This document shows, piece after piece, positions 2,029 through 57,210 of a stretch of DNA of 64,000 nt. Made by a program: the position numbers and the translations under genes. Under the pieces are notes generated by a model that was not told where the DNA came from, ran no database searches, and worked only from the letters and a program-made list of their open reading frames with translations. The DNA is taken from the NCBI GenBank assembly GCA_046598045.1, contig JBKJJJ010000162.1, positions 17 to 64,016 on the forward strand, given 5' to 3'. The DNA comes from Candidatus Eiseniibacteriota bacterium (GTDB lineage: Bacteria > Eisenbacteria > RBG-16-71-46 > DASYSL01). Within the stretch, counting starts at the first letter, position 1, and each line of letters opens with the position of its first letter.

Positions 2029-2195
2029 TGGGTTCCTCCGGGTGGGGGCGAAATCGTCGGCCTCAGGATATCAGATGCGGTCCGGCCGTGAATTGTCACA
2101 GGACGGACATCCGGACCGGGGCCCGCGGGGAAGCCGCCAGGACGGTGCGCCCCGGCGGTCTTGCCGCGCGCGGCGCGAGATCCTAGTATCGGCCC

Positions 2196-5357: not shown

Positions 5358-5423
5358 GGGTGCCCAAGCCGGGGCTTGATTCGGGGCCCCGAATCCCGTA
5401 AGCTCTTCGAGTTCCTGAATCTG

Positions 5424-5442
5424 CGTTCCACGGAATGGAACG
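5424..5442. promoter_or_regulatory. Inverted repeat CGTTCCA-n5-TGGAACG upstream of the first secreted-protein gene (candidate operator)
   Basis: Perfect 7-bp arms with 5-bp spacer seen in intergenic region 5358-5549, ~110 nt upstream of start at 5550. Confidence 0.3.
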
Positions 5443-5549
5443 CGGCTCCGCGGTCGTCTGCGCTCATTCGATCCCTCCGAAGCGCGCCGGGCCGGTTCGA
5501 TCAGTACCGTCGAGTGGGTATTCGGTGACTCCCCTGCTCCCCCATTGAG

Positions 5550-7059: not shown

Positions 7060-7263
7060 GCATCGACCAAGGGCCCGATTGACAAGCATTCCTCTGTCTG
7101 GCATACTTTGGTGGCTCTGGATGCTGCTCGTGTCCTTAGGTGGCGCCGCATCCATTTGATGAAACAGATTTTATCATCCTTCCGGCTCGCAACCCTCCTG
7201 CGACACCGTGACATTTCTCAGCCCGGTCCCGGACTTCGTGTCCGAATCGTCGGAGAGGCCATC

Positions 7264-34552: not shown

Positions 34553-34602
34553 TGCGAGTGCGCGATCCTCCCCGCGATCCGCGCCGTGCGGCTTGCCGCC
34601 AC

Positions 34603-40298: not shown

Positions 40299-40305
40299 GT
40301 GCGCC

Positions 40306-41241
40306 TCAGCGGGTTGCAGTGATCGCGAGTCCGATTTCGCGGACGGAATAGTCCTTGGAGCTGCGCGTCGAGGTCCGCCGGCGCCCGGCGCCGCGGACCT
40401 CCGCCCGCACGGGGCCGGCGAGGGCGTGGCCGATCGCGAATTCGCCCCGCCAGCGGTCGTCTTCGCGCCCGAAGTTGGACGCAAAGGGGCGGCCGGTCCG
40501 GTAATCCCGCAGCGCGAATTCGCCGAGGGCGCGCACCGAGATCTCCGCGACGGGTACGAACTCGCCTTCGAGGCGCACCGCATTTTGCGCGTAGGTGTAG
40601 AGGTCGGTCACGGAGTTCGCGTGCCGATAGACGTAGGACAGCGCGAGCCGCTTGCCCGGGTCGAAGCGGCGCTCGACCACGGAACGAAGGGTGGTTCTCC
40701 GGTCGTCGCGCTCGTTGGCGATCGGTATGAAATCCTCGTGGTCGCGGGTGAAGACGAACTGCGCCATCCATCCCGGGGCGGGCTCGTACCGGCCCTCGAA
40801 ACCCCAGTGGTCGCGATCGAGGCGGACATCGCCCCCGCTCCTGGGAAAGTACAGCTCGTCGCGCGTGAATCCGCCGAAGCCCCGCAGGCGAACCGGGCCG
40901 CGCCGCACGTCGAGGCCGAACTCCCAGCGGTCCAGGTTGCGTGCGCTCCAGGTGTCGTAGCGCTCTGCCGTCCAGCTCACCCAGGGCTTGACGCGCAGGC
41001 CGTGGGCCAGGCGGAACGTGACCTCGGGCTTGAGGACGAGACGCAGCCCGTTGTCCGATTCGAGCTCGGGCCCACCCGGGAACAGGTCGGTGGTGTGGAA
41101 GCCCGCGAGGGCGAGATCTCCGCCCCATGTCACCGCAGCCGCCGAAGCCGCCCTGGCCTGCGCAGGAAACATGGCTCCGCCCAAAAGGATGGAAACCCCG
41201 AGAATCAATGCAAGATGCGATCCGGGCAGGCGCAAGGCGAC
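40306..41241 (-). CDS. Putative outer-membrane beta-barrel protein (cassette copy 1)
   Basis: Alternating hydrophobic pattern, many Y/W/R; paralog of 49388..50335; start uncertain (GTG at 41241 gives signal-like LRLPGSHLALILGVSILLGGAMFPAQARA). Confidence 0.5.
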   Translation of the reverse strand, partial: VALRLPGSHLALILGVSILLGGAMFPAQARAASAAAVTWGGDLALAGFHTTDLFPGGPELESDNGLRLVLKPEVTFRLAHGLRVKPWVSWTAERYDTWSARNLDRWEFGLDVRRGPVRLRGFGGFTRDELYFPRSGGDVRLDRDHWGFEGRYEPAPGWMAQFVFTRDHEDFIPIANERDDRRTTLRSVVERRFDPGKRLALSYVYRHANSVTDLYTYAQNAVRLEGEFVPVAEISVRALGEFALRDYRTGRPFASNFGREDDRWRGEFAIGHALAGPVRAEVRGAGRRRTSTRSSKDYSVREIGLAITATR

Positions 41242-41308
41242 CTCATGAGCTGGTGTACAAACTAGTAAGTGGTTATCGCCTGCGATCAGATACAGCTTCA
41301 GCAGGAAA

Positions 41309-41527
41309 TCATGGCCACGTGGGGTTTTTTCGAATGGCGGGGTCGGACCCGGGGGAGTCGCCGGAAATCTCGGGCCGGAGAGCGGCCGCCAGGTCGAGGA
41401 TGCCCGCACCATCGTCCCGCGTGGCCTCCGGGACCGACGGGTCGATCGGCGCCGTGGTCAGGGACAGGCGCTCCAGTACTTGCGACGGCGACCAGTCCGG
41501 GTGCAGCGCGAGCCGCGCAAACACCGG
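41309..41527 (-). pseudogene. Remnant of subtilisin (S8) C-terminus, diverged copy of 3' end of 50517..51854
   Basis: '...LALHPDWSPSQVLERLSLTTAPIDPSVPEATRDDGAGILDLAAAL...' aligns with '...AAHPDWSRTKVLARMQQTATPIEPTVPGATTLFGAGILNLGAAL...'; no upstream catalytic domain. Confidence 0.45.
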
Positions 41528-41864: not shown

Positions 41865-43685
41865 TCAGAGGATCGGCACGCTGGCGGCGGTCTGCATCGC
41901 GCACAGGCGCGCGTACTTGCCGTTGCGCGCGAGGAGCGCGTCGTGACCGCCCTGTTCCACGATCCGGCCGTGCTCGAGGACCACGATGCGATCGGCGAAT
42001 CGAACGGTGGCGAGGCGATGGGCGATGATCAGCGTCGTCCGCCCGGCTGCGGCGCGTTCGAGCGCGTCGATGACGATCCGTTCCGAGGCGACATCGAGCC
42101 CGCTCGTCGGTTCGTCGAGGATGACGATCGGGGCATCGCGAAGGACGGCCCGGGCGATCGCGATGCGCTGCTTCTGTCCGCCCGAGAGGCTGGCACCGCG
42201 CTCGGCCACCGGCGACTGGTACCCGTTCGGCATCCGGGTGATGAATTCCTCGGCGTTCGCCATCCGGGCCGCGGATGCGATTTCCTCGGCGCTGGCGGTC
42301 GGGCGACCGAACGCGATGTTCTCACCGACGGTGCCGCTGAACAGGAGGGCGTCCTGGAGCACGAGGCTGATCTGATCGCGAAGCGACTGCAGTTCCAGGT
42401 CGCGGACATCCTCGCCGTCCAGGTGGACACTGCCCTCCGTCGCGTCGAAGAATCTGGGGATCAGTCCGACGAGCGTGCTCTTGCCCGCCCCGGTGGCGCC
42501 GACGATGGCAACGCGTTCCCCCGGCGCGATGTCGAGGTCGAGTGAGGTCAGTACGGGTTGTCCCGGCGCGTAAGCGAAGGACACGTTTCGGAATTCGATC
42601 CGACCCTTGAGGCGGGACACACGACGCGCGCCCGGTCGGCTCGCGACCTCCGTCCGTACCTGGAACACGTCCTGGATGCGCTCGAGCGCAATTGCCGCGC
42701 GGCTCACCGAGGTGGAGAGGCGCGCAAGCGCCTTCATCGGCGCGTAGAAGTTCGTCACATAGGCGAAAAAGACGATCAGGTCCCCGGTGGTCAGCTCGTT
42801 CGCGAGCACCCGCGTGGCGCCGTTCCACATCACGATCACCAGCCCGATGGCGGCGAGCACATCCACCAGCGGTGCGACTCGCGCCTGGTAGCGCACGCCC
42901 TCGAGATACGCGCGCAGGCTGTTCTCGCCCTGGAGTTGAAACCGCTCGTCCTGTTGCTGCTCCTGGGCGAGGCCTTGCACGATGCGGATCGCGACGAAGG
43001 TCTCCTGCGCGACGGACGCCAGCACGCCGTCGCTCATGCGCGCCGCGCGCGCAGCGATCTTGATCCGCCGCGTGTAGCGCACGACGATCCAGAACAGGAT
43101 CGGCGCCACGGACAGGGACGCCAACGCGAACTGCCAGTTGAGCCAGAACATGAGCCCCAGCATGGCGACCAGGAGGCAGGCGTTGCTCAGGAGCAGGATG
43201 GAGCCGTTGGCGACGAGGTCCTGGAGTGCACTGACGTCGCCCGTCAGGCGGGACATCAGGTCGCCGGTCCGCTGCTGGTCGTGGTAGCGAAGCGAGAGCC
43301 GCTGGATGTGGGCGAACAGCCGGCAGCGCAACTGGAACGCGAAACGCTGGGCGACGACGCCCACCGACCGCGTGAAGGCGTAGGTCAGGAGGCCCGTGAT
43401 GACCGCGATGAACAATGTGGTCGCGCAGGCGCCGAACAGGACACGCATGGGATCGTGGGCCGACTGGTTGACCCACTCCCCGATGAACGGGACGCGCGTG
43501 TGCCTGTGCGAAAGCACGGTGTCGATCACGACCTTGAGAGGCCACGGGCGCAGGGCGGTGAGCAGCGCATCGAGGATCATGGCGAGCGCGGCCCAAAGCA
43601 GCGGCGTTCGAAATGGCCGGAGGAGCGGAAGAAAGTGCGCGGACCAGCTGTCGGACGACTTGTCCCCGGGCGCTCGTTCAGCCAT
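41865..43685 (-). CDS. ABC transporter, fused permease/ATPase (MsbA-like exporter)
   Basis: 606 aa from internal ATG; TM region then Walker A 'GATGAGKST', 'LSGGQKQRIAIARA', 'IVILDEPTSGLD'. Confidence 0.85.
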   Translation of the reverse strand: MAERAPGDKSSDSWSAHFLPLLRPFRTPLLWAALAMILDALLTALRPWPLKVVIDTVLSHRHTRVPFIGEWVNQSAHDPMRVLFGACATTLFIAVITGLLTYAFTRSVGVVAQRFAFQLRCRLFAHIQRLSLRYHDQQRTGDLMSRLTGDVSALQDLVANGSILLLSNACLLVAMLGLMFWLNWQFALASLSVAPILFWIVVRYTRRIKIAARAARMSDGVLASVAQETFVAIRIVQGLAQEQQQDERFQLQGENSLRAYLEGVRYQARVAPLVDVLAAIGLVIVMWNGATRVLANELTTGDLIVFFAYVTNFYAPMKALARLSTSVSRAAIALERIQDVFQVRTEVASRPGARRVSRLKGRIEFRNVSFAYAPGQPVLTSLDLDIAPGERVAIVGATGAGKSTLVGLIPRFFDATEGSVHLDGEDVRDLELQSLRDQISLVLQDALLFSGTVGENIAFGRPTASAEEIASAARMANAEEFITRMPNGYQSPVAERGASLSGGQKQRIAIARAVLRDAPIVILDEPTSGLDVASERIVIDALERAAAGRTTLIIAHRLATVRFADRIVVLEHGRIVEQGGHDALLARNGKYARLCAMQTAASVPIL

Positions 43686-44826
43686 GCAAGCCGTCCCCGT
43701 GCCCGTCGCGAGTCCCGGGAGACGGAAGTTCCAGGGTGCCGCCCAGGTCGTCGATGTGGAGGAGGTCGTGCAGGCCCGACCTGTCGGCCAGGCGCGTGAG
43801 CAACCGCGCCGACGCGGCGCCTCGCAGGAGCTTCGGCTGATAGTGGGCGCGCAGGTCACGGTTCTTCACGTAGGTCGGATAGAGATGAAGCACGGTGCGG
43901 CGTTCTTCGAATCGAATCCCAAGCAGCATCGACTCGGCACGGCTGTTCGCGGAGCCGAACGCGAAGTTTCCGAGGCTGTAGATGATGGGACGGCCGCGAT
44001 GCAGTTCGATCGGCTGGATCACGTGGGAATGGTGGCCGATCACGGCGTCCGCCCCGCAGTCGATCGCGAAGCGGGCCTTGGCGCGATCCTCGGCGGTCGG
44101 CTCGGCCTCGTACGGCAATCCCCAATGCACGGTGACGACGATCCGATCGGCGCGACCGCGCAGCGCCCGAATGTCCCGGACGAGATCATCCGGCGTGTCC
44201 ATCGCGCTCCCCGGCCGGGTTGACGTCGCCGCGGTCCGGCGATTCCAGTAGTAGCCGAGCAGGCCGATGCGATATGGCCCCGCCTCGAGGATGACCGGCG
44301 CGTGCGCCGCAAGCTCGTTCTCCCCGCCCCCAATGGCAAGCACGCCGGCGGTCGCCAACGCTTCGAGCGTCTCGAGCACACCCTCCACACCGCAATCGAG
44401 CAGGTGATTGTTCGCCAGGTTCACGACGTTGATTCCCGCCCGCTTGAGCGTGGATGCCGTCCGCGGATGGACCCGGTAGGAAAAGTGGCGATCCTGCTTC
44501 TCCGCGTATTTCGCGAGCGGCCCCTCGAGGTTTGCGAGCACGATCGGCGCCTGGCGGAGCAGCGGGGCCACCCCCTCGAACGGGTACTCCGGCCCATACT
44601 TTTCGATCGCCTTCCGGGCCCGTCCGCCGAGCATGACGTCGCCGCCGGCAAGGAGTGAGAGTCCCAGCGGTTCCGCACTGGCCAGGTACGCCTCGAGCGC
44701 CGGCCCCGAGACCAGGTCCTCGTCCGCCGGAATCTCCTCCGGGTGCACGTGATTCAGCATGACCTGGTGGGCCGCCAGGATCGCCCGGCGGGAAGTCGTC
44801 GGCAGGCGTCCGGCCTCATCCTTCAT
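43678..44826 (-). CDS. CapA/PGA_cap-family metallophosphatase (poly-gamma-glutamate synthesis/capsule family)
   Basis: 382 aa from internal ATG; 'GDVMLGG...NLEGPL...NVVNLANNH...GHHSH...SLGNFAF' CapA blocks. Confidence 0.7.
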   Translation of the reverse strand: MKDEAGRLPTTSRRAILAAHQVMLNHVHPEEIPADEDLVSGPALEAYLASAEPLGLSLLAGGDVMLGGRARKAIEKYGPEYPFEGVAPLLRQAPIVLANLEGPLAKYAEKQDRHFSYRVHPRTASTLKRAGINVVNLANNHLLDCGVEGVLETLEALATAGVLAIGGGENELAAHAPVILEAGPYRIGLLGYYWNRRTAATSTRPGSAMDTPDDLVRDIRALRGRADRIVVTVHWGLPYEAEPTAEDRAKARFAIDCGADAVIGHHSHVIQPIELHRGRPIIYSLGNFAFGSANSRAESMLLGIRFEERRTVLHLYPTYVKNRDLRAHYQPKLLRGAASARLLTRLADRSGLHDLLHIDDLGGTLELPSPGTRDGHGDGLHG

Positions 44827-44857
44827 GGGTTCGCGCACGAGGGCGACCTCCCGAAAT

Positions 44858-46096
44858 TCAAAGCGCCGCCATGCCACGCGCGGCGAAGACCTGTGCGATG
44901 AGAGCGCCATGACGCCCGGATTGGAGGAGCTGGTCGGCGGAGAGCAGCGCCGACAGGCCCGTCTCGAACCCGTCTCGCGCCCGGCAGGTGCCTGCCACGG
45001 TCGCCGGGCTCGCTTTCCCGCTCCGCCGACCCAACTCGAGAAGCATGCCGAGGACGAGTCGATCAGTGATGCGGGAGCCGCACGCCGGGTCCGCGGTGAT
45101 CCGTGTCCGCAGGTCCCAGAGCGCGGCGCCCCAGATCGTGCCATTCGCGTGCGGGTCCGCGCGGGGACCCGGGTCGAAGTCCGCCATCGTCCGCGGCGAG
45201 ACCAGGCTTCGGGCGTGAGGCGGCCGCCCGTCATGGCCATGGTGCCAGGCCCAGATGTGCGGCACGCCGAGCATCGTGGCCGCCCAGTAATCGCTCGTCC
45301 CTTCGTCCAGCGCGGTCTTGCGATTGTCCTGGCGATCGGGACGCCGCAGGGAATTGGCCCGAAGATCGGCCGTGTGACGCGCGATGTGATGTCCGTACTC
45401 GTGGTAGAGAATGCCGGCGTTATGCGACGCATTGGCCCGGTACTTCTCGCCGACGGCCCTCACGATCGCCCCCGCCTCGAGTAACTGCCGGCCGGGCCCG
45501 AGATGAATCTCGCCCTGGGTCGAGAGCGGCACGGGTTCGGGAATGTCGTACCTGCGAGCGGGCAGGCGGTAGTGCCCGCCCTGAAACGCCAGCCATCGCT
45601 CCCCGCGCCGGACTCCGTTGCGCTTGCCGGCACAGTCGGTCGCCGCGTGATGCGCATTGACGACGGCGACCACACGGGGAAGAGACGGCGCGCCGAGTTC
45701 GTGGAGCAGCTCGTCCACGTAGGAGGCGACGCGATCGAGGTGATGGTAGGTGTTGGTTTCGCCGAAGTGGGATGCACCCACGTAGCGCTCCCGCCAGTGC
45801 GCTTTGGCGCTCGAGTGCGTGTCCATCCGTCCCCCGCCGCGGCCCGGTTCGAACAGGAAGTCCCCCGCCTCATTGGGCCTCGCGTTTCCGATGGCGAGCG
45901 CTTCCGGCTCCCCCCGGTCGGTTCCCAGCCCGGGGAGCTCGCCCCCGTTGCGCACCTCGACGAAGCGGCCGACGAGGCGCGGGACGCCGTCCGCCTGGGG
46001 TTCGAGCCGCAGAAGCGGTTCGACTCCAAGGACGACGCTGCCGCTCGACGCCTCTGCGCCATCGGGCCGCCAGAGGTAGACCCGGCCGCGGCTCAT
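44858..46096 (-). CDS. Zinc metallopeptidase, thermolysin-like/gluzincin (HEYGHH ... EGTSDYW)
   Basis: 412 aa from internal ATG overlapping upstream stop (ATGA); 'ILYHEYGHHIARH' then 'ALDEGTSDYWAATM'; no obvious signal peptide. Confidence 0.55.
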   Translation of the reverse strand: MSRGRVYLWRPDGAEASSGSVVLGVEPLLRLEPQADGVPRLVGRFVEVRNGGELPGLGTDRGEPEALAIGNARPNEAGDFLFEPGRGGGRMDTHSSAKAHWRERYVGASHFGETNTYHHLDRVASYVDELLHELGAPSLPRVVAVVNAHHAATDCAGKRNGVRRGERWLAFQGGHYRLPARRYDIPEPVPLSTQGEIHLGPGRQLLEAGAIVRAVGEKYRANASHNAGILYHEYGHHIARHTADLRANSLRRPDRQDNRKTALDEGTSDYWAATMLGVPHIWAWHHGHDGRPPHARSLVSPRTMADFDPGPRADPHANGTIWGAALWDLRTRITADPACGSRITDRLVLGMLLELGRRSGKASPATVAGTCRARDGFETGLSALLSADQLLQSGRHGALIAQVFAARGMAAL

Positions 46097-47235
46097 GCGG
46101 CAGGGGGCATGCTCGGGGCCGACCCGACGGCCCCCGACCCGGTCCTCTGACGCGCGAGTTGCTCGAGGCGCTCGTTGAGCTTGCCGCGCTCCAGTTCCTG
46201 CGCCGTGATGCAGCGCACGCCGGAACCCGCGTGCGCTTCCCGCATGGCGAGCGGGCTCATGCTCAGGAGTCCGGAGATCGCCTCGGGAACGATGCCCCAG
46301 TCGCGCAGCGTCCACACGCCGCCCAGCGCTCCGAGCGGATCGCTGGTGGCGAAGACCCATGCGTCGACGGTGCGTGTGAATGCGGGGGATTGCAGCAGGG
46401 CCGCCGTCTCCTTCTGGAGCAGGCCGTCGGCAATCTCGATCACGACCCACTCGGCGCCGTGCGACGCCGCGTTCGAGACCAGGACCCGATGGAGATCGAG
46501 CAGCTCGTCGAGCGTGCAGAGGTACGTCGATGGATGCCCACCGTCGACGAAGTCGAGGGCAACGCACGCGCCCGTGTCCTTGACTTTCCAGAGATCCCGC
46601 CCGGTGGCAGTGCCGGTCAGCTTGATCGCCGCCACGCGATGGTTTCCCCTCTGCAATCCGACGATCAGGCTCGCTGCGGTGTGGGTCTTGCCCGCGTCCA
46701 TGGAGGATCCGCACACGACGACGACGTGGGGCCGGTGCGCATGCGGCTGCGCCTCGAGCGCGAACTGACGGAGGTTCAGCGGTTGCCCCTGGGCATTGCC
46801 GAGCGCGCCGAGCTGGCGGAGACGGGTCGGTTCGACGATCCCGTCACACTTGCTGACGACCATTCCGCAGACGCCCCCCACCGAGAGCAGGTCGCAAAAC
46901 GTGCCATCGGAACGCGCGTACCCCTCGAACTGCTGGGTCGCGTACCGGTTTCCGAAAGCCACCGCGATCAGGTCCCCCTCGTGCAGGTTGCAGATGCGCC
47001 CGGACGCGAGTTCGAGTCGCGTGTTCTTCCCGATCCTCTCCACTTGTGCCAGGACGATGTCCCCCGCACGCGCGGATGTCGGCGTCGGCAGGAGCGTCCC
47101 GACGGCGGCTTCGGGCACGCGTCGCAGGGCGTACGGGAAGCGGATCGTCGCCCTCATGCAGTCATCGAGGCGGCGGATCCCGTTGGTCGAGTTGATCCCG
47201 TTCTGGTTCAAGAAACCTCCCGGATGCTTGGCCAC
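46093..47235 (-). CDS. P-loop containing protein of unknown function (DUF1611-like)
   Basis: 380 aa; Walker-A-like 'GSSMDAGKTHTA'; weak recollection of DUF1611 family, low confidence in family name. Confidence 0.4.
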   Translation of the reverse strand: MAKHPGGFLNQNGINSTNGIRRLDDCMRATIRFPYALRRVPEAAVGTLLPTPTSARAGDIVLAQVERIGKNTRLELASGRICNLHEGDLIAVAFGNRYATQQFEGYARSDGTFCDLLSVGGVCGMVVSKCDGIVEPTRLRQLGALGNAQGQPLNLRQFALEAQPHAHRPHVVVVCGSSMDAGKTHTAASLIVGLQRGNHRVAAIKLTGTATGRDLWKVKDTGACVALDFVDGGHPSTYLCTLDELLDLHRVLVSNAASHGAEWVVIEIADGLLQKETAALLQSPAFTRTVDAWVFATSDPLGALGGVWTLRDWGIVPEAISGLLSMSPLAMREAHAGSGVRCITAQELERGKLNERLEQLARQRTGSGAVGSAPSMPPAA

Positions 47236-47238: not shown

Positions 47239-47925
47239 CTATTGGAGATACAGCGTTCGCAGGTGCGTCGCAGCCTGCACGGAGTTTGGGAGTTGCAGCT
47301 TGACGCGCCAGTTGTAGGCCCCGGGCGGCAGCGCCTGGCCTGTGTACGAACCGCGGTTTCCGGTGCCGTTCCAGTCCGCCTGTGTGCTTCGGCTCCGGAT
47401 CGAGGTCCAGGCGATCACGCCATCGACGGAGAGCCGCGCACTGGCGGTCAGATAGGGCGCGCGGGACTCGCTCCACGTGAACCGGAGGGGCGCCGAGAAG
47501 GAGGGCAATGGTGCCACGGCGCCGTCCCCCGGTGTGAGGAGGGCCAGCCCGGCCGCGTCGACGTCCAGCGGCACGATCGCGATGGCATCCCCGGAATGGA
47601 GGACGTCGAAGAAGGCGCGCACATAGCCCAGATCTTCGGGGGCCGTCGGGGAGACCCGGATGACCCAGCGGCCAGGCGGAACGGCCTGGAAGCCATAGCC
47701 CCCCGAACCATCGGTCACGGTGGAGTCGATCGCGGCCTCGAGCGAGTCATGGACGGCAAGGAGGATGGTCATCCCCGCCGCAGCCACGCCGGCGCGCAAG
47801 ACCCGTCCCGTGACCTGCGGGCTGCCCGGCGGAGCCGTGACCGCCTGCTCACGGGCCAGTCCGCATCCGACGGTCGCGATCAGCATCGCTGCCACCGTCC
47901 AGCCTGCCGTGCGCCCGGGTCTCAC
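47239..47925 (-). CDS. Lipoprotein with CarbopepD_reg-like domain (cassette copy 2)
   Basis: 228 aa; lipobox 'LIATVGC'; paralog of 38185..38868; ATGA overlap with PQQ gene. Confidence 0.6.
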   Translation of the reverse strand: MRPGRTAGWTVAAMLIATVGCGLAREQAVTAPPGSPQVTGRVLRAGVAAAGMTILLAVHDSLEAAIDSTVTDGSGGYGFQAVPPGRWVIRVSPTAPEDLGYVRAFFDVLHSGDAIAIVPLDVDAAGLALLTPGDGAVAPLPSFSAPLRFTWSESRAPYLTASARLSVDGVIAWTSIRSRSTQADWNGTGNRGSYTGQALPPGAYNWRVKLQLPNSVQAATHLRTLYLQ

Positions 47926-49370
47926 GGGAGGACCACGAGCGCCCGCAGGGCGCGCGCGGACCCTGCCGACAGCCGAACGCGGTACACCCCGGGCGCAACC
48001 CGGCTACCGCTGGAATCGTGCAGGTCCCACGCGATCGCGAGCTCGTTCCGTTCGCCCACGCCGCTCCACAGCGTCGCCACCTTGCGGCCTGCGACGCTGA
48101 AGACTTCGAGCCGGCCCCGGAGCGACTCGGCCACGCGAAACCGCAGGGTGACCGACGTCGTCGCCGGCGTGGGTGTCGGCGGGAGTAGCGCCACACCTTC
48201 GACTCCGACCGGCTCGCCGACCCCGACCAGCGCGTCGCCGATCGCGTAGAACCTGCCGTCTTCGGCGCCGAAATACACCGTGCCGTCGGCGCCGATCGCC
48301 GGCGAGGTGCGGATCGAGGAATTCGCCAGGAACTTCCAGCGCACAGTTCCGTTCGGATTTGCGCAATAGAGTGTCGAGTCGTCGGAGCCGAAATAGACCG
48401 TGCCATCTCTCGCCACCGCCGGGGACGAGCGGACCTCGTGCCGCGCCGAGACCCGCCACAGCTTGACGCCCGTCGCGGGGTCGAGTCCCACGATGTGCGA
48501 CCCCATGCCCGCCACGACAACGCCGTCGGCGCGCACGGCCGGGGTGACGTCGATGTTCGTCGTATCCGTGTAGGTCCAGCGGATGGAGCCGTCGGGGCGC
48601 AGCGCGCGAAAGATCCGGTCCCGGCTTCCGCAGTAGATCGTCGAGTCGGGTCCGACCGTCGGGGAAGCGAGGTTGATCACTCCGCCCGTCGTGCCCGACC
48701 ACCTCAATCCCCCGGCGTTGGTGACCGCATAGATGTTGGCGTCCCAGGATCCGACGTAGAGATCCCCGGAAGGGCCCACCGCGGGAGAGGAACGCACGAA
48801 GTTGAACGTGGGGAACGCCCACACCGGCGCGCCCGCGGCGGTGAAGCGGTAGAGGTTGTAGTCGCTGCTGCCCACCACGACATCGCCATTCGGCAGGATC
48901 AGCGGCGACGACCTGAAGTTGTTTCCCCGGGTTGCGCTCCAGCGCAGCGTGCCGTTCGAGCGCACGGCGTAGAACGTGCTGTCCATCGCCCCGAAGTAGA
49001 CCGTGCCGTCCGCGGCGATCGCGGGACTCGAATAGCGCAGCGGAGCGCCCGCGAGAAACGACCAGCGCAACGCGCCGTTGGGCTCGAGCGCGTAGAGCCG
49101 GCCGTCGATGGCGCCGAAGTAGATCGCGCCGTCGGGTCCAATCGCCGGCGACGATTCGATGATCGAATCCGCTGCCAGGAAGGACCACTTGACGAACGGA
49201 ACATTGATGCCGGGGGCGGCGGACAATCCCCGGTGCGCAGGACCCCCGTGGAACATGGGCCAGGGGGAGGTCGCAAGCTGAGCATGGGAGATCGTGGGTG
49301 CGGCGAGCAGGAGGAGAGCTCCCGCAGCAATCGCCCGCGTGATCACCACCGGGCTGCGATGTCGTGGCAT
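47922..49370 (-). CDS. Secreted PQQ-like beta-propeller repeat protein with T9SS-type C-terminal domain (cassette copy 2)
   Basis: 482 aa; signal MPRHRSPVVITRAIAAGALLLLAAPTISHAQ; same repeat units; C-terminus '...LEVFSVAGRKVATLWSG...APGVYRVRLSAGSARALRALVVLP'. Confidence 0.75.
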   Translation of the reverse strand: MPRHRSPVVITRAIAAGALLLLAAPTISHAQLATSPWPMFHGGPAHRGLSAAPGINVPFVKWSFLAADSIIESSPAIGPDGAIYFGAIDGRLYALEPNGALRWSFLAGAPLRYSSPAIAADGTVYFGAMDSTFYAVRSNGTLRWSATRGNNFRSSPLILPNGDVVVGSSDYNLYRFTAAGAPVWAFPTFNFVRSSPAVGPSGDLYVGSWDANIYAVTNAGGLRWSGTTGGVINLASPTVGPDSTIYCGSRDRIFRALRPDGSIRWTYTDTTNIDVTPAVRADGVVVAGMGSHIVGLDPATGVKLWRVSARHEVRSSPAVARDGTVYFGSDDSTLYCANPNGTVRWKFLANSSIRTSPAIGADGTVYFGAEDGRFYAIGDALVGVGEPVGVEGVALLPPTPTPATTSVTLRFRVAESLRGRLEVFSVAGRKVATLWSGVGERNELAIAWDLHDSSGSRVAPGVYRVRLSAGSARALRALVVLP

Positions 49371-49387: not shown

Positions 49388-50335
49388 CTACTTGCGAGTT
49401 GCGCTCAAGGCGATGCCGAACATCGAAACGTCATAGCTCTTGCCCGGTCGCGTGGAGACGCGTCGCCGCCACGACCCGTAACATTCGGCGACCACGGGCC
49501 CCGCGATGGCGTGCCCGAGCGTGGTCGAGGCCAGCGCTCGCGTATCACCCCGGCCGAAATTTTCGGCGAACGACTGCCCGGTGCGGTAGTTGCGCAATCC
49601 AAGCTGAAGTTCCAATTCCCCGGTGACTCCCGCCGGAAGCGGCCAGTCCACGAGGGCGCGCAGAGCGTTCTGCTGATAGCTGAACAGCCGCGTCACCGAG
49701 TCCCCCCGCCGGTACTCGTGGGCGAGGCTGACCATTCGCCCCCCGGAGAGGTTTCGCTCCAGGCCGGTCCGGAAGGACCAGCGATGGCCGTCGCGCTCGT
49801 CGTACGTGGGAACGAAATCGTCACGCTCGTATTCCGCCCGCGCGTTCACCCGCCAGCCGGGGGTCAGGTCGATCCTGACATCTCCGCCGAGCGCGGAGCG
49901 ATCGAGCAACGCCCCATCCGAATCCCGGGCGGGAAACGACAACTCGCCGTCCGTGCGTTCTCCGTAAATCCGAAGACGATAGCGGCTCGCCCTGAGGTCC
50001 GTCCCGACGGTCCATTGCTCGAGGTTGCGTGCGGACCACCTGTCATAGCGTTCCGCGACGAGCTTCCCCCAGGGCAAGATCCGGAGCCCCTTCCCCACCG
50101 ATGCGCGCACGGACATCTTCAGCGACACCCTCGTGCCCCAATCAGGCCGGGGTTGGGCGACGCCGGGAAAGAGGTCCTCGGTGTGGAAGCGCTCGATACG
50201 GGCCGTGCCGCCCCAGGTGTGCTCCAACGCGGTCTCGGCATGGCAGAGCCGGGGGCTGAGGAGCATCGAGGCCACACCCCACGAAGCGAGGACTGCATTT
50301 CTGTGTCCCGGAACCGCCCGGCGCAACGGCCGCAT
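49388..50335 (-). CDS. Putative outer-membrane beta-barrel protein (cassette copy 2)
   Basis: 315 aa from internal ATG (MRPLRRAVPGHRNAVLASWGVASMLLSPRLCHA signal-like); paralog of 40306..41241. Confidence 0.5.
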   Translation of the reverse strand: MRPLRRAVPGHRNAVLASWGVASMLLSPRLCHAETALEHTWGGTARIERFHTEDLFPGVAQPRPDWGTRVSLKMSVRASVGKGLRILPWGKLVAERYDRWSARNLEQWTVGTDLRASRYRLRIYGERTDGELSFPARDSDGALLDRSALGGDVRIDLTPGWRVNARAEYERDDFVPTYDERDGHRWSFRTGLERNLSGGRMVSLAHEYRRGDSVTRLFSYQQNALRALVDWPLPAGVTGELELQLGLRNYRTGQSFAENFGRGDTRALASTTLGHAIAGPVVAECYGSWRRRVSTRPGKSYDVSMFGIALSATRK

Positions 50336-50446
50336 TCGAGTCTCCACTCGCAGGGAACCCCCCGACCGCTTCGCGCCGGATGACGGCGACCGGCAGAGGC
50401 TGTCCCGTAGGTGGATCGAAGGGGGTTGGAAATACAAGACTCTCGC

Positions 50447-50516: not shown

Positions 50517-51854
50517 TCAGGGAGTCGCGCGCCGCAATTCCGTCCCCCCGGGTTCCAAATCTCCGGAGGCGACCGGGCCGAGGGCGGCCCCGAGGTTGAG
50601 GATGCCGGCCCCGAAGAGCGTCGTGGCTCCGGGAACAGTCGGTTCAATGGGGGTTGCGGTCTGCTGCATGCGGGCAAGGACCTTGGTGCGCGACCAGTCG
50701 GGGTGCGCGGCGATCAGGAGGGCCGCACCGCCGGCGACCCACGGCGCCGACATCGAGGTTCCGCTCCAAACCGCGGTGTTCCCGTTCCAGAACGCACTGC
50801 GAATCCCCTGCCCCGGAGCACACAGGGCGACCTGGCTGCCGAAGCTCGTGAACGAAGCGGGACGATTGTCCGTCCCCGACGCCGCGATCGCGACCGTGGG
50901 GTCATTTTCCGCCGGATACTCTTCCGGCCATTCGGCGCCCCAGTTTCCCGCCGACGCGACGACCACGATTCCGACGGCATGCGCGCGGCCGATGGCGTCC
51001 GCGAGAAGTTGATCGTCGACCAGCATCCCGAGGCTGAGGTTGATCACGTCCGCCCCGCGAAGCCGGGCGTAGTCGATCGCGCGTGCAATCGTGAAGGCAT
51101 CGCCGCGCCCGTCATTGTCGAGCACCCGCAGCGGCAGGATCCTGGCGGCAGGGGCGACGAGCGCAACGATCCCGGCGACGTGACTGCCATGGCCGAGGGC
51201 CTCGTCGATCAGGCCGTCGCCGTCGGAATCGATGCCATCGGGAACCTCGCGCGGATCACTATCGTTGTCCACGAAGTCGTAGCCGCTGACGAGGTGCGTC
51301 ACCAGCAAAGGGTGGGTGGGGTCCACGCCGGTATCGAGCACGGCGACCATGGTGCCGCGACCGGTCGAATTGACGTGGGCTTGCGAGAGGCCGACGCGTG
51401 CTGCGGCGAATTGGTCGGAGTAACCGGAGCGGTCCGGGAAGCCGTCGTCGAACGCGAAGGAGTGTCCGCGCGACTCGGCGGTTTCCGCATACTGGTTGGG
51501 CTCGGCCCACGCCACTCGTGCGTCCCCGCGCAGCGCCGCCGAGCTCGAGTCCGGATCCGCCCCTGCCGGCAGGACGCAGAGGATGGCCGAGCCGACCTGG
51601 CCGATGCGGCTGAGCGAGTACTCCGTCTCGACCTGGTTCTCGTTGCTCGCGTCCCTAGCCGACCAGACGAGCTGCCCGGGAAGTGACTGAGCGACGACGA
51701 CCGGCGGAGCGGCGGCGTCGACCCGGTACGCCGCCCCGAGGCGCGTCTGCGGCGACATGGGGGCGCTCGACGGAGCGCACGCCGCGCCGGAGCAAGCGAA
51801 TGCAAGCAGGAGCGCGAGTCGCAGGAGAGGGTGTGAATGCACGTGAACCATCAT
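50517..51854 (-). CDS. Subtilisin-family serine peptidase (S8), lipoprotein-type signal
   Basis: 445 aa from internal ATG (MMVHVHSHPLLRLALLLAFACSGAAC); catalytic triad blocks 'VAVLDTGVD', 'HGSHVAGIVA', 'GTSMSAPWVAGGAALL'. Confidence 0.85.
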   Translation of the reverse strand: MMVHVHSHPLLRLALLLAFACSGAACAPSSAPMSPQTRLGAAYRVDAAAPPVVVAQSLPGQLVWSARDASNENQVETEYSLSRIGQVGSAILCVLPAGADPDSSSAALRGDARVAWAEPNQYAETAESRGHSFAFDDGFPDRSGYSDQFAAARVGLSQAHVNSTGRGTMVAVLDTGVDPTHPLLVTHLVSGYDFVDNDSDPREVPDGIDSDGDGLIDEALGHGSHVAGIVALVAPAARILPLRVLDNDGRGDAFTIARAIDYARLRGADVINLSLGMLVDDQLLADAIGRAHAVGIVVVASAGNWGAEWPEEYPAENDPTVAIAASGTDNRPASFTSFGSQVALCAPGQGIRSAFWNGNTAVWSGTSMSAPWVAGGAALLIAAHPDWSRTKVLARMQQTATPIEPTVPGATTLFGAGILNLGAALGPVASGDLEPGGTELRRATP

Positions 51855-51886
51855 GACTCCGCTCCGGGGTGTGGGATCGATTCCGT

Positions 51887-54739
51887 CTAGGATTCTACCA
51901 TGGACCGACCCACCCCCGGCAACCGGAGAGCCGCCCGCGCGCCGGGGATCGACAGCCGCGCTTCGGCATCCCCGAGCAGGGTCCAAGCGTTCGCACTCCA
52001 ATGGGTTGCCGGATCCGCGGGCGCGTCCGCGCGTGCTCCCGCGAGGGCTTCGCCGAGCGCTTCGCCCCGGATGAGGCGCTCGTAAATCGCGGCGCTCAGG
52101 GCAAATGTGGCACCATCGTCCGCATCCCAGAGGCTCGCGAGCACGGTGCGGGTGTTCGCCCGGAGGAGCCCTCCCGCCAGTCCCTGCCAGTCGTTCCGGA
52201 ATCCGCCGACGAGCTCGCCGGTCCGACAGGCCGCGAGCACCACGGTGCGCGGGGCGTGTCCTCCCGGCGCGAGATCAGGCAGGTACGCCCAACGATCCGC
52301 GAGCCGCACGCCGGAGAGCACGGGCCGATCGCCATCGTGACGCCCGTGCCCCGAGAGGTGCAACCAATCGGCTCCCGCCACGGCCGCGCGCACCCGCGCC
52401 GCGGTCGCATCCCGGCCGAGCAGGACGCGCGCACCGGGCAGCAGTTGCGCAAGGTGACCGATCTCGCGCTCGACGGCCGGCATGTGTTCATCACCGAGGC
52501 CGACGAGCACCACCGGTCCCGGGCCGAGCCTGTGGGTCGAGGCGGCGGACGCCGGTCGTCGCGCCGGGCGCACTCGACCGGCTTGCAGAAACGCCACGCT
52601 CGGCAACACCGACACCATGGCGGGAGCAAGCGACGACCACGGCAGCGTGACGAGCGGCCCCGAGGGCACGACCACGAGGTGCGCCGGCTCGACGCCCCGT
52701 TCGCGCGCCGCACGCAGCGGTTCTGCCAGCAGGACGCGTCCGAGTTCCGCAAGGGCCTGCTCGAGCGCCGGCCCGGCGCCCGGGAGACGGCCTGCGGCCC
52801 CACGCGCAAGGTATCGAATCTCGTCGAGCGCGGTCTCGAGCGCCGTCGGCGAGAGCAGCCACTCGTGGACGGCGCAACCGTTCGCATCGAGCGCGAAAAC
52901 CCCGACGCGGCCGGGGAGCACGAAGTATTCGAGGACCAGCTCGTGGGGTCCGAGCACGGCCCGGGCCGCGGCGAGCGTCGGCGGGGCGGGCGCGTGCCGG
53001 CCGCGCCGGCCCAGCGCTTCGCGTTCGACCTTGTCGAGGAGCCGCGCGACCTCGCGTCGCTCCTGCTGCTGGGGCGCGACAAACGGCTCCGGAACCGCGG
53101 CGCGGGGCGAACGCCCGAAGCTCCGCACCTCGAGCCGACACGCCAGCGCACGCAAGCGGGCCTCGAGCTGCGGCGGGAAGCGCCCATGGGTGAGGGCCCC
53201 GGGGGTTCCCGGGTCGAAGCGCTCGAACGCCCGCGCGCGCGCGCGCTCGAGCGCGCGAAACACCCCCGCGGGCCGTCCCGCCGCGAGTTCGAGCGCGACC
53301 ATCCCCGGATACGCGTCCTCCCACGCGGTCCAGTCCGTGGCGCGAAAGAGTTCGCCCTGCACGCGGCCCGCCAGGGACTCGCTGATGCGCATGGCGCGGG
53401 CATACGCCCTCCGCGCACGGCCCAGATCCTGAGCCGCCACGGCCGCGTCCCCCTCGAGACAGGCGACGCGAAACGCCAGAAACGTCGCGTCCGCGCGCCG
53501 CGCCCGTTCCGCGGCGCGCGCGATCAGCCGCGCGGTCGGGCGGCCGAGCGCGAGTGCGGCCCGACCCGCGAGGACCCACGCGAGTCCGGCGCGCACGCGG
53601 TCGCCGGCGCGCTCGAATCTCGCCGCCGCGAGCCGGGCTCCACGGAGAGCGCGCGCGCCGCGGTGCTGCGCCAGATCGCATTCGGCCCGAGCGAGCTCAC
53701 ATTGCCCGATCCAGACCTGGTTGTTCTCGCGTACGAAACCTCGCCGCGCGTTCGCCAGGCAACCGCGGGCCCCGGAATACTCCCCGCGCGCCGCGTGGGC
53801 CACGCCTTCGAAGTACTGGCTCTTGGCCCGCTCGTAACGCATGCCGAGCTCCCCCGCACGCGCCGCGGCTCGCGCGGCGGCGGTCGCTGCATCGGAGGGG
53901 CGTCCCAACCGCAGATGAATCTCGCTTGCGTCCGCGTCGAGCAGGACGCGGTAGTCCTCGGCGCCCAGGCCCGCGAAGCGCGGCTCGAGTGCGGCCAATG
54001 CGAAAAGGGCCTCGGCGTAGCGATGCTGCAGGAACAGGAGGTAGGCGAGGGCGTAGTCGCAACCGGCGGCCTCGAGCGCGCGCCCCGACTGTTGGAACGC
54101 GTTCCCGGCATGGCGCAACAGGCGGGCCGCATCCCCGGGCCGGCCTCCGAGGGCCAGGCAATTTGCACGATTGGCGTCCACGCGCGCGAGGACCGCACGG
54201 TTGGCTCCCCCCGCCGCTTTCAGGCCCCTGCGAGCACGGGTATAGAGCGCGAGCGCCTGGCGCGGGCGATCGAGCCGGTATTCGAGGTTGGCGACGTTGT
54301 TCAGCAGGCGGGCCGCAGCCGAGCGCTCCCCGGCGCGCACGAAGCGCGGCAGCGCCGAAGCGGCAGTCCGACGCGCCTGGGAATAGCGACCGAGGTACAT
54401 CAGCGCGTCGACCCATCCGATCGCGCAGCGGGCGGATTCGAGGGGCAGGCCAGCGGCCTCGAACAGGTCGGTTGCAGCCCGGTAGTCCCGCGATGCCTCC
54501 GCATGGCGGCCGAGCCCCCGGAGCGCATGGGCCTGCACACGCAACAGGCGCGCACGCAACACCAGTCCGGTGCCGCGGTTGGTCCCCGATCCGATGCGGC
54601 CGAGGGCGCGCGCGGCCGCGGCCAGGCCCGCCTGTGCCGAGCGAGCACGCGCGCGTTCGACGCGTTCGATTTGCGCGTCCGCAGGGGATGGATTCTTCTC
54701 CGATCGGGAGGTGCGAGGCAAGGGAGAGCCCGGCATCAT
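51887..54739 (-). CDS. TPR-repeat protein with C-terminal CHAT (caspase-like) protease domain
   Basis: 950 aa from internal ATG of ORF 51887..55510; many TPR-like Ala/Leu/Arg-rich repeats; C-terminal 'ADWLHLSGHGRHDG...VVLAACRTGE' His/Cys dyad of CHAT domain. Confidence 0.7.
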   Translation of the reverse strand: MMPGSPLPRTSRSEKNPSPADAQIERVERARARSAQAGLAAAARALGRIGSGTNRGTGLVLRARLLRVQAHALRGLGRHAEASRDYRAATDLFEAAGLPLESARCAIGWVDALMYLGRYSQARRTAASALPRFVRAGERSAAARLLNNVANLEYRLDRPRQALALYTRARRGLKAAGGANRAVLARVDANRANCLALGGRPGDAARLLRHAGNAFQQSGRALEAAGCDYALAYLLFLQHRYAEALFALAALEPRFAGLGAEDYRVLLDADASEIHLRLGRPSDAATAAARAAARAGELGMRYERAKSQYFEGVAHAARGEYSGARGCLANARRGFVRENNQVWIGQCELARAECDLAQHRGARALRGARLAAARFERAGDRVRAGLAWVLAGRAALALGRPTARLIARAAERARRADATFLAFRVACLEGDAAVAAQDLGRARRAYARAMRISESLAGRVQGELFRATDWTAWEDAYPGMVALELAAGRPAGVFRALERARARAFERFDPGTPGALTHGRFPPQLEARLRALACRLEVRSFGRSPRAAVPEPFVAPQQQERREVARLLDKVEREALGRRGRHAPAPPTLAAARAVLGPHELVLEYFVLPGRVGVFALDANGCAVHEWLLSPTALETALDEIRYLARGAAGRLPGAGPALEQALAELGRVLLAEPLRAARERGVEPAHLVVVPSGPLVTLPWSSLAPAMVSVLPSVAFLQAGRVRPARRPASAASTHRLGPGPVVLVGLGDEHMPAVEREIGHLAQLLPGARVLLGRDATAARVRAAVAGADWLHLSGHGRHDGDRPVLSGVRLADRWAYLPDLAPGGHAPRTVVLAACRTGELVGGFRNDWQGLAGGLLRANTRTVLASLWDADDGATFALSAAIYERLIRGEALGEALAGARADAPADPATHWSANAWTLLGDAEARLSIPGARAALRLPGVGRSMVES

Positions 54740-54768
54740 GGCATGCGGATCGCGGGAGCGGGGCGGAC

Positions 54769-55434
54769 TCAGCGCGGCGGAGCGCGCCGGGCACGCCGCG
54801 CCGGGGGAACCCATGCGGAACGAAATGAGCGCGCCTTGCTCTCGAGGGTCACCCGGACCTCCGGGCTGAGCAGCGCGACCGGGCCAAAGAATCCGCGCGG
54901 TCCCGGGACCACGCGCCGCGGGCGCCCGTGTCGGGTCTCGAAGAGCAGCCGGGGGGCCGCCACTTCCTTCGCCACGGCGACACGACCACGCAGGCTCCAG
55001 GCATCTCCTTCGGGCAGCCATTCCAGGTCGATGCGAAATGGGCCGCCCTCGAGCGTGCAATTGCGGGTTCGAGGCTCGCCGCGCACCGCGGCGCCGGGGC
55101 TGGACATACGCTCCCGGTGAAAGGCGCCCGAATCCATCAGGAGCCGCAGGCGCGCGAATCCCGCCGGGGCCGTCGCGCGAGCCGGCACCATCGCGAAGGC
55201 CGCCTCGGCCCGGCGACGAACCGCTTTCGGCACCGGTTCGAATGCGCCGGGCAGCGCGGCCAGTCTCACGAGGCGGGCGGCCTCCTGGATCCGCCGGCAC
55301 GGCGTACATGCGCGAGCGTGGCGCTCGTGGGCACGGGCCGCGTCCGCCTCGAGCACACCCAGGGACCAGAGCATCCATTCCCCGGCCGCGGGGTGGGTCG
55401 CTTGCTTGTCCATCGTCGGCTGACGTCGTTTCAT
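54769..55434 (-). CDS. Putative anti-sigma factor (zinc-finger type, HxxxCxxC)
   Basis: 221 aa from internal ATG overlapping sigma stop (ATGA); 'AHERHARACTPCRRIQEAARL' ZAS-like motif; position directly after ECF sigma gene. Confidence 0.5.
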   Translation of the reverse strand: MKRRQPTMDKQATHPAAGEWMLWSLGVLEADAARAHERHARACTPCRRIQEAARLVRLAALPGAFEPVPKAVRRRAEAAFAMVPARATAPAGFARLRLLMDSGAFHRERMSSPGAAVRGEPRTRNCTLEGGPFRIDLEWLPEGDAWSLRGRVAVAKEVAAPRLLFETRHGRPRRVVPGPRGFFGPVALLSPEVRVTLESKARSFRSAWVPPARRARRAPPR

Positions 55435-56040
55435 CGGACACTCCGCGTTTGAACACGCGAAGGGCGCGTGTTCGACTCCAAGGTGGACTTTGCGGGGCCC
55501 GTGATACCACGATTCTTGAGCAGTTCGAACATCCGGGCCAGGCAGCGGCGGCGTGTCGGTCCGAGGGAGCCCAGGGGCTCCGAGACGCGCTTCGCGATTT
55601 CGGCGTACGAGGGCGTGGGATCGCTCAGGAAGAGGAGCGTGAGGAGTTCGCGGCAGCGCGGCGACACCTGCGCGAGGGCTGCTTGCACGTCCCGCCGGGC
55701 TTCGAAGGCGGTGAGAACCTGGTCCACTTCTGGCTCCGAGGCCACGACATTCTCCCAAAATGCCCCGTCCGGCGGGCGCACCTCCCGGCGGCTGCGGGCG
55801 CGCTTGTCACGCGCGATGCGGAACGCGGTTTGTGCCAGCCAGCGGGGCAGCGTGCGGGAATCCCGCAGCCGGGGGAGCCCGCTCAGGAACGCGACGGCGA
55901 CATCCTGGAACACGTCCGCCGCGTCATCCGCGTCGAACCCCATGCGACGGGGCACCGAGTAGATCAGGCGCTCGTAGCGATCGAGGAACGTGACCCATGC
56001 GCGCTCGTCTCCCTGCCTCAGGCGCGCGACGAGTTCCCGG

Positions 56041-56057
<17 letters not shown>
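55431..56057 (-). CDS. ECF-type RNA polymerase sigma factor (sigma-70 family regions 2 and 4)
   Basis: 'DRELVARLRQGDERAWVTFLDRYERLIYSV' (region 2) and 'SYAEIAKRVSEPLGSLGPTRRRCLARM' (region 4 HTH); start placed at internal TTG because ORF start at 56165 would overlap mnmA by 125 nt; start uncertain. Confidence 0.65.

Positions 56058-57210
<1,153 letters not shown>

Follow-up and report, generated by a model that had tools for sequence, protein, structure and literature searches.

Proteins that combine a tetratricopeptide repeat (TPR) array with a CHAT domain are abundant in bacteria, and to our knowledge only the CRISPR-bound Csx29 has an established substrate, besides a suspected one of DdvA. 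In the type III-E craspase, Csx29 cleaves Csx30 and thereby releases CASP-sigma, a sigma factor of the extracytoplasmic function (ECF) group (PMC10028731). In DdvA of M. xanthus, the transmembrane anti-sigma that pairs with the ECF sigma factor DdvS, a zinc-binding anti-sigma (ZAS) domain is joined via a membrane helix to a periplasmic TPR-CHAT part and the protein is proposed to cleave itself; this fused architecture has been reported from Myxococcota and one Comamonas only (PMC11506125). CalpL/CalpT/CalpS and SAVED-CHAT/PCaspase with PCc-sigma belong to type III-B CRISPR systems (bioRxiv 10.1101/2023.06.23.546230). Here we analyzed a stretch of 64,000 nucleotides from Candidatus Eiseniibacteriota bacterium (assembly GCA_046598045.1, contig JBKJJJ010000162.1, positions 17 to 64,016 of the forward strand; the whole stretch is hereafter called the window), whose minus strand carries a module of four successive genes for an ECF sigma factor, a soluble ZAS-type anti-sigma, a TPR-CHAT caspase-like protein and an S8 subtilisin-family lipoprotein (Table 1). 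What is new here is a conserved four-gene unit with an active-looking protease and a sigma-linked cis motif; the locus would work like craspase or DdvA, yet it belongs to neither.

The likeness to DdvS/DdvA lies in the DdvA structures, which were among the best Foldseek matches of the TPR-CHAT model, and in the anti-sigma family profile, which weakly touched the DdvA N-terminal domain. On the other hand, the anti-sigma and TPR-CHAT are here separate genes, whose open reading frames (ORFs) are parted by a stop codon and a 29-nt gap, and neither has a membrane segment; the anti-sigma has a beta-sandwich of its own, the sigma factor shows no special similarity to DdvS, the apparent regulon consists of glycosyltransferase (GT), outer-membrane protein (OMP) and S8 genes instead of CRISPR genes or those of cyclic-oligonucleotide-based antiphage signalling systems (CBASS), and the S8 lipoprotein is an obligatory fourth gene, in another phylum. 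With craspase the locus shares a cytoplasmic TPR-CHAT protein linked to an ECF sigma factor and a soluble sigma inhibitor, but Cas7-11, CRISPR RNA (crRNA) and Csx31 are missing and activation is thus not RNA-guided; moreover, the anti-sigma is a 221-aa ZAS-type protein as against 565 aa for Csx30, and its TPR-CHAT partner has a much longer TPR array (950 aa versus about 700-750 aa). No craspase association was seen among the tested genes between 31.8 and 57.2 kb, which match other families, or among the neighbours of related loci, which are mnmA, glycosyltransferases and housekeeping genes, no dedicated scan for CRISPR arrays or cas genes having been made. Classical soluble ZAS pairs (SigR/RsrA, RpoE/ChrR, SigL/RslA) likewise have H-x3-C-x2-C, a fourth ligand ahead of it and the translational overlap, but they have no dedicated protease gene, and an upstream promoter usually lets their sigma genes regulate themselves; the motif found here, by contrast, is located in the sigma 3' end and directed towards the anti-sigma. 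In CalpL/CalpT/CalpS and SAVED-CHAT/PCaspase, a signal-activated protease also acts on a sigma factor or a sigma-inhibitor pair; however, these are activated by cyclic oligoadenylates via SAVED domains, comprise other protease families and architectures, and stand in a CRISPR context. In full-text literature searches TPR-CHAT was tied to sigma factors in CRISPR or DdvA contexts only, and neither the four-gene module nor regulation in Eisenbacteria was described; caspase or CHAT contexts are not mentioned in the main text of the ECF reclassification paper (PMC7826278).

A conserved four-gene unit and its proteins

A 12-sequence alignment was used to scan one genome for each GTDB species, which gave 79 loci, and profiles from six loci were applied to all six-frame ORFs of the fetched loci. 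A strong CHAT orthologue was present in 33 loci, mostly titled Candidatus Eisenbacteria. Sigma and anti-sigma lay upstream of it in 25/26 assessable loci and S8 lay downstream in 26/27, a Terriglobales locus being the sole synteny exception. About 30 loci keep the four-gene order, nearly all of them Candidatus Eisenbacteria, at identities down to 25-35%. The synteny counts rule out a chance neighbourhood. Homologous contexts at 66, 51, 40, 35 and 33% identity share the order sigma, a 200-225-aa protein without Pfam match, TPR-CHAT and S8, and the flanks are unrelated in L003, L005 and L006. Sigma, an anti-sigma-like protein and CHAT are also kept in the distant loci L087-L089 (25-30% identity), where a larger S8 is found nearby in two of the three. 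The module was observed at a single place per contig, adjoining mnmA in the subclade of the window, except in L009 (22-9005), which carries tandem modules (CHAT-S8, then sigma-anti-sigma-CHAT-S8). Judged from sequence, sigma, anti-sigma, TPR-CHAT and S8 form a real functional unit conserved across the phylum, and the coupling of CHAT to a dedicated sigma/anti-sigma pair, which the original prediction had read from this one locus, recurs in the same order amid varied flanks.

The CHAT domain gave E = 1.3e-26 and 94 bits against PF12770 (cut-off 24), and TPR_12 stayed under its cut-off. Residues 19-505 form about 12 TPR-like helix pairs, and CHAT occupies about 590-925; in the AlphaFold2 (AF2) model (pLDDT 85.7, pTM 0.83), about 24 paired helices are followed by a caspase-like domain. 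The top Foldseek matches of this model were separase (1e-16), DdvA (8.5e-14; 8rw5/8rot) and Csx29/craspase (about 1e-11), all with probability 1.00. When the family profile was searched against sequences of the Protein Data Bank (PDB), craspase TPR-CHAT proteins were the best solved relatives (E = 4e-9), and a single-sequence PDB search with CHAT gave nothing useful. No exchange of the catalytic residues H798 (in LHLSGHG) and C838 (in LAACRTG) occurs among 22 homologues, the most distant of which have 25% identity. From the domain match, the His-Cys dyad and the N-terminal TPR array, we class the protein as a predicted CHAT-family caspase-fold protease, and by its residues it looks catalytically active. 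No signal peptide was found in it. As for its start, the NCBI protein for this gene has 975 aa, fitting an upstream ATG at 54814 that overlaps the anti-sigma gene, and the N-termini of homologues favour 54739.

The anti-sigma carries the sequence HERHARACTPC, that is H39-x3-C43-x2-C46, in addition to H14. It had no Pfam or NCBIfam match itself; zf-HC2 (PF13490) touched 8/10 family members below threshold (E <= 1, best 1.5e-3), and the family profile against PDB found RslA (3hug_B) best at E = 1.2e-3, followed by weaker matches to RsiW and the DdvA N-terminal domain. In the AF2 model (pLDDT 69), four helices at 17-81 are followed by strands at 124-208, with low confidence at 84-92 and 103-120 (linkers), so that a helical anti-sigma domain at the N-terminus is joined by a linker to a beta-sandwich at the C-terminus. 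For this model, Foldseek returned generic beta-sandwich matches alone (E > 0.04). Conservation extends to the linker (FDS..PL.AAAR-RSVGEARRLRF), with R118 and R124 present in 29/32 anti-sigmas and Arg at position 125 in 28/32, where the window has Asn. The ligand motif, the N-terminal helical domain and the overlap with the sigma gene point to a class I (ZAS-type) anti-sigma. None of the 32 anti-sigmas has a hydrophobic segment (maximum Kyte-Doolittle hydropathy < 1.5), indicating that the protein is cytoplasmic. The family is tiny: a search of 1.84 billion representative proteins gave 50 clusters at E <= 1e-3. In L002, the annotated anti-sigma gene (7265-7870) could not be aligned with orthologues, and the family profile matched an ORF over 7144-7815 instead.

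The sigma ORF spans 55431-56165 and is open up to an ATG at 56165, the extra stretch overlapping mnmA. Translation likely begins at TTG 56057, as judged by the ribosome-binding site and by where orthologues begin; this codon has GGGAGG 8 nt upstream and gives a 17-nt overlap with the end of mnmA (56041). The protein scored 30 bits against Sigma70_r2 (PF04542; cut-off 24) and 60.9 bits against TIGR02937 sigma70-ECF (cut-off 42.9; residues 56-211); it contains regions 2 and 4 only, with models of the ECF (group IV) sigma-70 family above their cut-offs, and its closest solved relatives are all ECF (AlgU/SigH, SigE, SigW, CnrH, RpoE). No NCBIfam equivalog was above cut-off. Start and stop of the sigma and anti-sigma genes overlap in an ATGA that can be read directly at 55434-55431. 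In the window, sigma is probably co-transcribed with mnmA. Loci without mnmA upstream (e.g. L003 at about 6680-6700, L014 at about 3700-3715) show a -10-box-like TAnnnT about 7-12 nt before the sigma ATG, and in such loci a housekeeping promoter may give rise to a sigma mRNA with little or no leader.

The S8 protein scored 155.8 bits against PF00082, and D170, H218 and S363, the oxyanion residue N300 and the lipobox C22 are identical in at least 29/30 orthologues (residue 1 being the first of the profile match, which begins 3 residues into the protein); lipoboxes were read in the orthologues. The family model, the Asp/His/Ser triad and the lipobox Cys characterize it as a predicted exported subtilase lipoprotein. 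Thus the sigma/anti-sigma pair with its ATGA overlap, the ZAS-type zinc motif, the 950-aa TPR protein with a CHAT domain and the S8 lipoprotein next to it, all of which the original prediction had named from the letters of the window, were recovered by family models, conserved residues or direct reading, and the CHAT His and Cys, whose lack of conservation would have spoken against that prediction, proved to be conserved. The S8 component also expands independently, with two or three tandem paralogues in L003 (10862-15288) and L030 (2707-5618). A conserved small ORF between CHAT and S8 was considered and dropped, the gap being absent in L001, L003 and L005.

A bipartite cis motif linked to the sigma factor

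By comparing the regions upstream of sigma, a non-palindromic motif with a fixed 16-nt spacer was found, GTATCA-N16-CACCT(C)T, or in fuller form (G/T)GTATCA(G)-N15-CACCT(C)T. Its main position is a sense copy at the sigma/anti-sigma junction, present in most module loci. The motif is kept where the sigma stop codon falls within the spacer (L003, L026, L015, L016, L010), and it preserves a GGT Gly codon despite a G+C content at third codon positions (GC3) of about 82-96% in the ORFs of the window, indicating that the constraint lies on DNA and not on protein; a protein-coding explanation was rejected on these grounds. A second position is seen in loci without mnmA upstream, where an extra copy upstream of sigma points away from it; in most of 15 such loci a divergent high-GC3 ORF begins about 35-95 nt past the motif, and this ORF is a GT4/GT28 glycosyltransferase in 8/10 tested, likewise in L003 and L005. 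Between S8 and OMP, L001, L002 and L008 carry further sense copies, which are better than the copy of the window, and L010 has one in its CHAT-S8 gap. Every copy, in the orientation chosen, faces a downstream gene, be it anti-sigma, GT4/GT28, OMP or S8.

Across 840 kb of fetched loci there were 44 matches of at least 17 bits, all in module loci, and one of them comes from a Holophagae locus, where it is located at the 3' end of sigma. The motif co-varies with sigma: in L006, L020 and L009, GTACGA-N16-CAC(A/C)T occupies the same place and region 4.2 of sigma differs, and L009 carries the variant at both sites. In the window, the copy about 45 nt upstream of the anti-sigma ATG (55481-55507) is the only match with zero mismatches and the only one of at least 12 bits by position weight matrix in 64 kb. 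Upstream of sigma (56057) no copy was found in the window. The original prediction had looked for an ECF promoter there and ahead of the OMP cassette: the former expectation failed, the motif facing the anti-sigma instead, and the latter was partly borne out by weaker copies before both OMP cassettes, one of them 72 nt upstream of the OMP-2 ATG (50409-50435). Nor did the motif turn up elsewhere, as would suit a sigma factor in charge of other genes, since the sites in the window are confined to the gene array of the module.

As background, GTATCA resembles the GTAAC-type -35 boxes of ECF promoters. Because the motif is bipartite with a fixed spacer, always stands upstream of a gene and co-varies with sigma, we infer that it is a promoter dependent on the sigma factor of the locus, the copy at 55481-55507 serving anti-sigma-CHAT-S8. 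Sigma itself is probably not autoregulated, given that the motif is absent upstream of 56057 and sits inside the sigma 3' end facing the anti-sigma. Other readings of the motif fared worse. In the opposite orientation (AGAGGTG-N16-TGATAC, a sense promoter for sigma), which is less parsimonious, the copies at the sigma 3' end, in the S8-OMP gap and in the CHAT-S8 gap would be antisense; a Shine-Dalgarno-like reading of AGAGGTG was rejected as no start codon lies at a fitting distance; and a riboswitch or known small RNA was dropped after an Rfam scan of the entire window gave no family at gathering score. A generic promoter and terminator scan gave no sigma-70 sites and terminators at chance level, and operon boundaries were not defined thereby.

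The candidate switch and competing explanations

We propose a self-contained cytoplasmic sigma switch, in which TPR-CHAT cleaves the anti-sigma and the freed sigma drives the genes that carry the motif, a proposal for which we hold belief and doubt to be evenly balanced. Basal expression would supply the ECF sigma factor, and the soluble class I anti-sigma would keep it bound. The TPR array would bind a cytoplasmic ligand or protein, making TPR-CHAT a signal-sensing protease, and its His798/Cys838 site would cut the anti-sigma, likely in the conserved linker at about 103-125 (around R118, R124 and position 125), between the sigma-binding helices and the beta-sandwich. Freed sigma would then direct RNA polymerase to GTATCA-N16-CACCT(C)T promoters: the one inside the sigma 3' end would drive anti-sigma-CHAT-S8, with feedback via new anti-sigma and more protease, and others would precede the OMP/propeller cassettes and the GT28-GT4-GT4-ABC array. 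The output would be the exported S8 lipoprotein protease together with a surface glycoconjugate and outer-membrane set. In other words, the locus probably follows the logic of a protease that destroys an inhibitor, here switching on surface-sugar and secreted-protease genes, which has so far been shown only in CRISPR-linked systems.

Where the signal would be sensed follows from topology. Since the anti-sigma lacks a transmembrane segment and CHAT a signal peptide, sensing is placed in the cytoplasm, and the envelope-stress circuit of the original prediction is not upheld. Its wider idea of a regulated proteolytic circuit for surface remodelling stays plausible and gains support from the cis element, with cytoplasmic sensing in place of envelope stress. 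It had also suggested the exported S8 and propeller proteins as CHAT targets, which is topologically unlikely. The anti-sigma is the most plausible CHAT substrate because the two are fused elsewhere, strictly syntenic here and accompanied by an intact dyad. Besides DdvA, a fused ZAS-TM-TPR-CHAT protein of 1163 aa (TM, transmembrane) is encoded in L079 (Vicinamibacterales, Acidobacteriota; 1604-5924), preceded by an ORF whose C-terminus resembles sigma region 4 in the translation, and such fusions provide Rosetta-stone support for the link between anti-sigma and CHAT. Related arrangements include L077 (Acidobacteriota; 3244-6158), with a split transmembrane ZAS anti-sigma, a secreted-looking CHAT protein (a hydrophobic N-terminal stretch was read from its translation) and an ECF sigma factor, and L086 (Krumholzibacteriia; 1-3269), with TPR-CHAT followed directly by an ECF sigma factor. 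From this evidence we infer that CHAT cleaves the anti-sigma.

Several points weigh against the switch. The contact between CHAT and the anti-sigma is a prediction, and the switch itself does not account for an exported S8 so tightly linked to it. The orientation of the motif was argued from positional parsimony and general ECF promoter architecture, the distances to start codons being unable to discriminate, and the window copies before the OMP genes carry two mismatches each, of which chance yields about 5 matches per window. Finally, the complete ZAS site H14/H39/C43/C46 is present in 30/32 anti-sigma sequences, so that redox sensing by the anti-sigma itself is possible. This last point also favours a different explanation, in our view an unlikely one, namely a redox or thiol switch in which the soluble anti-sigma senses oxidative or electrophile stress like RsrA/ChrR, with TPR-CHAT and S8 as mere regulon outputs (e.g. 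for proteolytic clean-up) that do not act on the anti-sigma. Such a switch would fit the solubility of the anti-sigma, which is shared with RsrA, and CHAT and S8, lying downstream of the putative sigma-dependent promoter, would be outputs in any case. However, L087 and L089 have lost the ligands and retain both the CHAT linkage and the dyad, which argues against zinc or redox chemistry as the conserved trigger; the ZAS-CHAT fusions of DdvA and L079 point to a direct functional link, the conserved linker and the beta-sandwich would be superfluous in a simple redox device, and most ZAS proteins are not known as redox sensors.

Both characterized CHAT-sigma systems are linked to defence, so we also considered an anti-phage module, in which TPR-CHAT would sense infection and, via sigma, trigger an abortive response or changes that protect the surface, in the manner of the DdvS/DdvA-controlled island or the type III-E craspase. 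S8 matched the 'subtilase' model of PADLOC at 2e-21, a generic match, and one GT4 had a sub-threshold GT4-conflict match, but sigma, anti-sigma and CHAT had no PADLOC match. Furthermore, no cas or CBASS genes were among the listed neighbours of 9 related loci or in the gene array of the window (a dedicated CRISPR-array or cas scan was not part of this), S8 is an exported lipoprotein, and a single place per contig with mnmA or glycosyltransferase neighbours fits vertical inheritance better than a mobile island; a defence role is therefore quite unlikely. Least probable, and in our judgement very unlikely, is a non-proteolytic TPR-CHAT, acting as a scaffold or as a partner-switching anti-anti-sigma that sequesters the beta-sandwich (or, in a variant, processing sigma or another cytoplasmic protein), for although large TPR arrays are typical of protein-binding scaffolds and the active site of DdvA is incomplete (PMC11506125), the catalytic His and Cys are invariant in the 22 homologues.

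Returning to cleavage of the anti-sigma by TPR-CHAT, a fuller version can be put forward only tentatively: a free-standing, CRISPR-independent, craspase-like switch found phylum-wide, in effect a split and membrane-free DdvA, whose soluble TPR-CHAT would sense a cytoplasmic cue and cleave the soluble ZAS anti-sigma, and which, from an unusual promoter in the 3' end of sigma itself, would govern an exported subtilisin and a surface glycoconjugate programme. It is pure speculation that S8 closes the loop by producing an extracellular peptide that is imported and sensed by the TPR array in the manner of RRNPP receptors. If the switch exists, it would offer a minimal four-part system (sigma, anti-sigma, protease and promoter motif) for the activation and the substrate of a stand-alone bacterial caspase-like protease, and would extend signalling by CHAT enzymes that remove an anti-sigma past antiviral defence. 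It would also be the first regulatory circuit, with a candidate regulon of surface glycans, outer-membrane proteins and a secreted protease, for Eisenbacteria, of which we know no cultured members, and the orthogonal set of sigma, promoter and protease could serve as a switch in synthetic biology.

Gene array around the module

The window has about 70% G+C, and GC3 frame analysis showed a nearly unbroken minus-strand gene array from 57210 to 31794 (Table 1).

Table 1. Features of the gene array in the window, listed in the direction of transcription, followed by copies of the bipartite motif
Feature	Positions	Strand	Remark
mnmA	56041-57210	minus	
ECF sigma factor	55431-56057	minus	208 aa from TTG 56057
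Soluble ZAS-type anti-sigma	54769-55434	minus	221 aa
TPR-CHAT caspase-like protein	51887-54739	minus	950 aa
S8 subtilisin-family lipoprotein	50517-51854	minus	PF00082 E = 2e-45
OMP-2, outer-membrane beta-barrel candidate	49388-50335	minus	weak SlipAM/DUF560 match
Pyrroloquinoline quinone (PQQ)-like beta-propeller with Ig-like C-terminal domain, secreted	47922-49370	minus	PF13570 and PF13360 matches
CarboxypepD_reg-domain protein	47239-47925	minus	PF13620, 33.5 bits
Unknown P-loop protein	46093-47235	minus	between the two OMP/propeller cassettes
M36-like peptidase	44858-46090	minus	between the two OMP/propeller cassettes
PGA_cap protein	43678-44829	minus	between the two OMP/propeller cassettes
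ABC gene	41865-43859	minus	between the two OMP/propeller cassettes
S8 3'-end relic	41351-41512	minus	S8 profile match E = 5e-13
OMP-1 (cassette 1)	40306-41235	minus	
Second PQQ-like propeller	38865-40295	minus	cassette 1 (38865-41235)
GT28, GT4, GT4, ABC exporter, APH-like kinase	31794-38200	minus	Pfam
Motif, canonical copy	55481-55507	minus	inside sigma ORF 3' end
Motif, degenerate copy, GTATTT-N16-CACCT	50409-50435	minus	S8-OMP intergenic region
Motif, variant copy, GTATCT-N16-CACTT	41267-41293	minus	about 30 nt upstream of OMP-1 start

Downstream of the module, the order of OMP and PQQ-like propeller was by Pfam as the original prediction had claimed, with the CarboxypepD_reg-domain protein, a putative lipoprotein in that prediction, in third place, and in the window the module does head this cassette. 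Among the loci compared, however, the OMP/PQQ cassette was seen in the window's own subclade alone, and the partners that the module keeps across loci are glycosyltransferase/ABC genes; the GT28/GT4/GT4/ABC/APH-like set is located downstream in L001 and L002 and divergently in L003. L001 and L002 have a single cassette with GT28 directly after it. In the window, the S8 3'-end relic and the variant motif precede the second OMP/propeller copy, indicating that a segmental duplication, in which the end of S8 was copied along, gave rise to the cassette, and the four genes now lying between the duplicated cassettes entered later.

The last ~70 residues of both propellers matched FlgD_ig at E of about 4e-4, below the cut-off, and the C-terminus of the 47922-49370 propeller, the only copy scanned with NCBIfam, matched the PorU C-terminal region at about 9e-5, also sub-threshold. 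With all model matches sub-threshold, the secreted cargo with type IX secretion system (T9SS) tails that the original prediction had proposed was not confirmed, a T9SS tail on the propellers being plausible at the sequence level. OMP-2 scored 27.6 bits against SlipAM/DUF560 (PF04575; cut-off 22) with partial coverage of the model, and OMP-1 had no match; unlike Slam-type DUF560 barrels, neither has a TPR region. A putative N-terminal signal sequence of OMP-2 was seen in the translation. OMP-2 is placed between the S8 lipoprotein and, further down, the CarboxypepD_reg protein, a placement that hints at a possible surface-lipoprotein export pair outside Proteobacteria. The 380-aa ORF at 46093-47235 contains a P-loop-like GSSMDAGKT and has no Pfam or NCBIfam family except for a faint CbiA match; it adjoins the M36-like peptidase and the CapA/PGA_cap protein.

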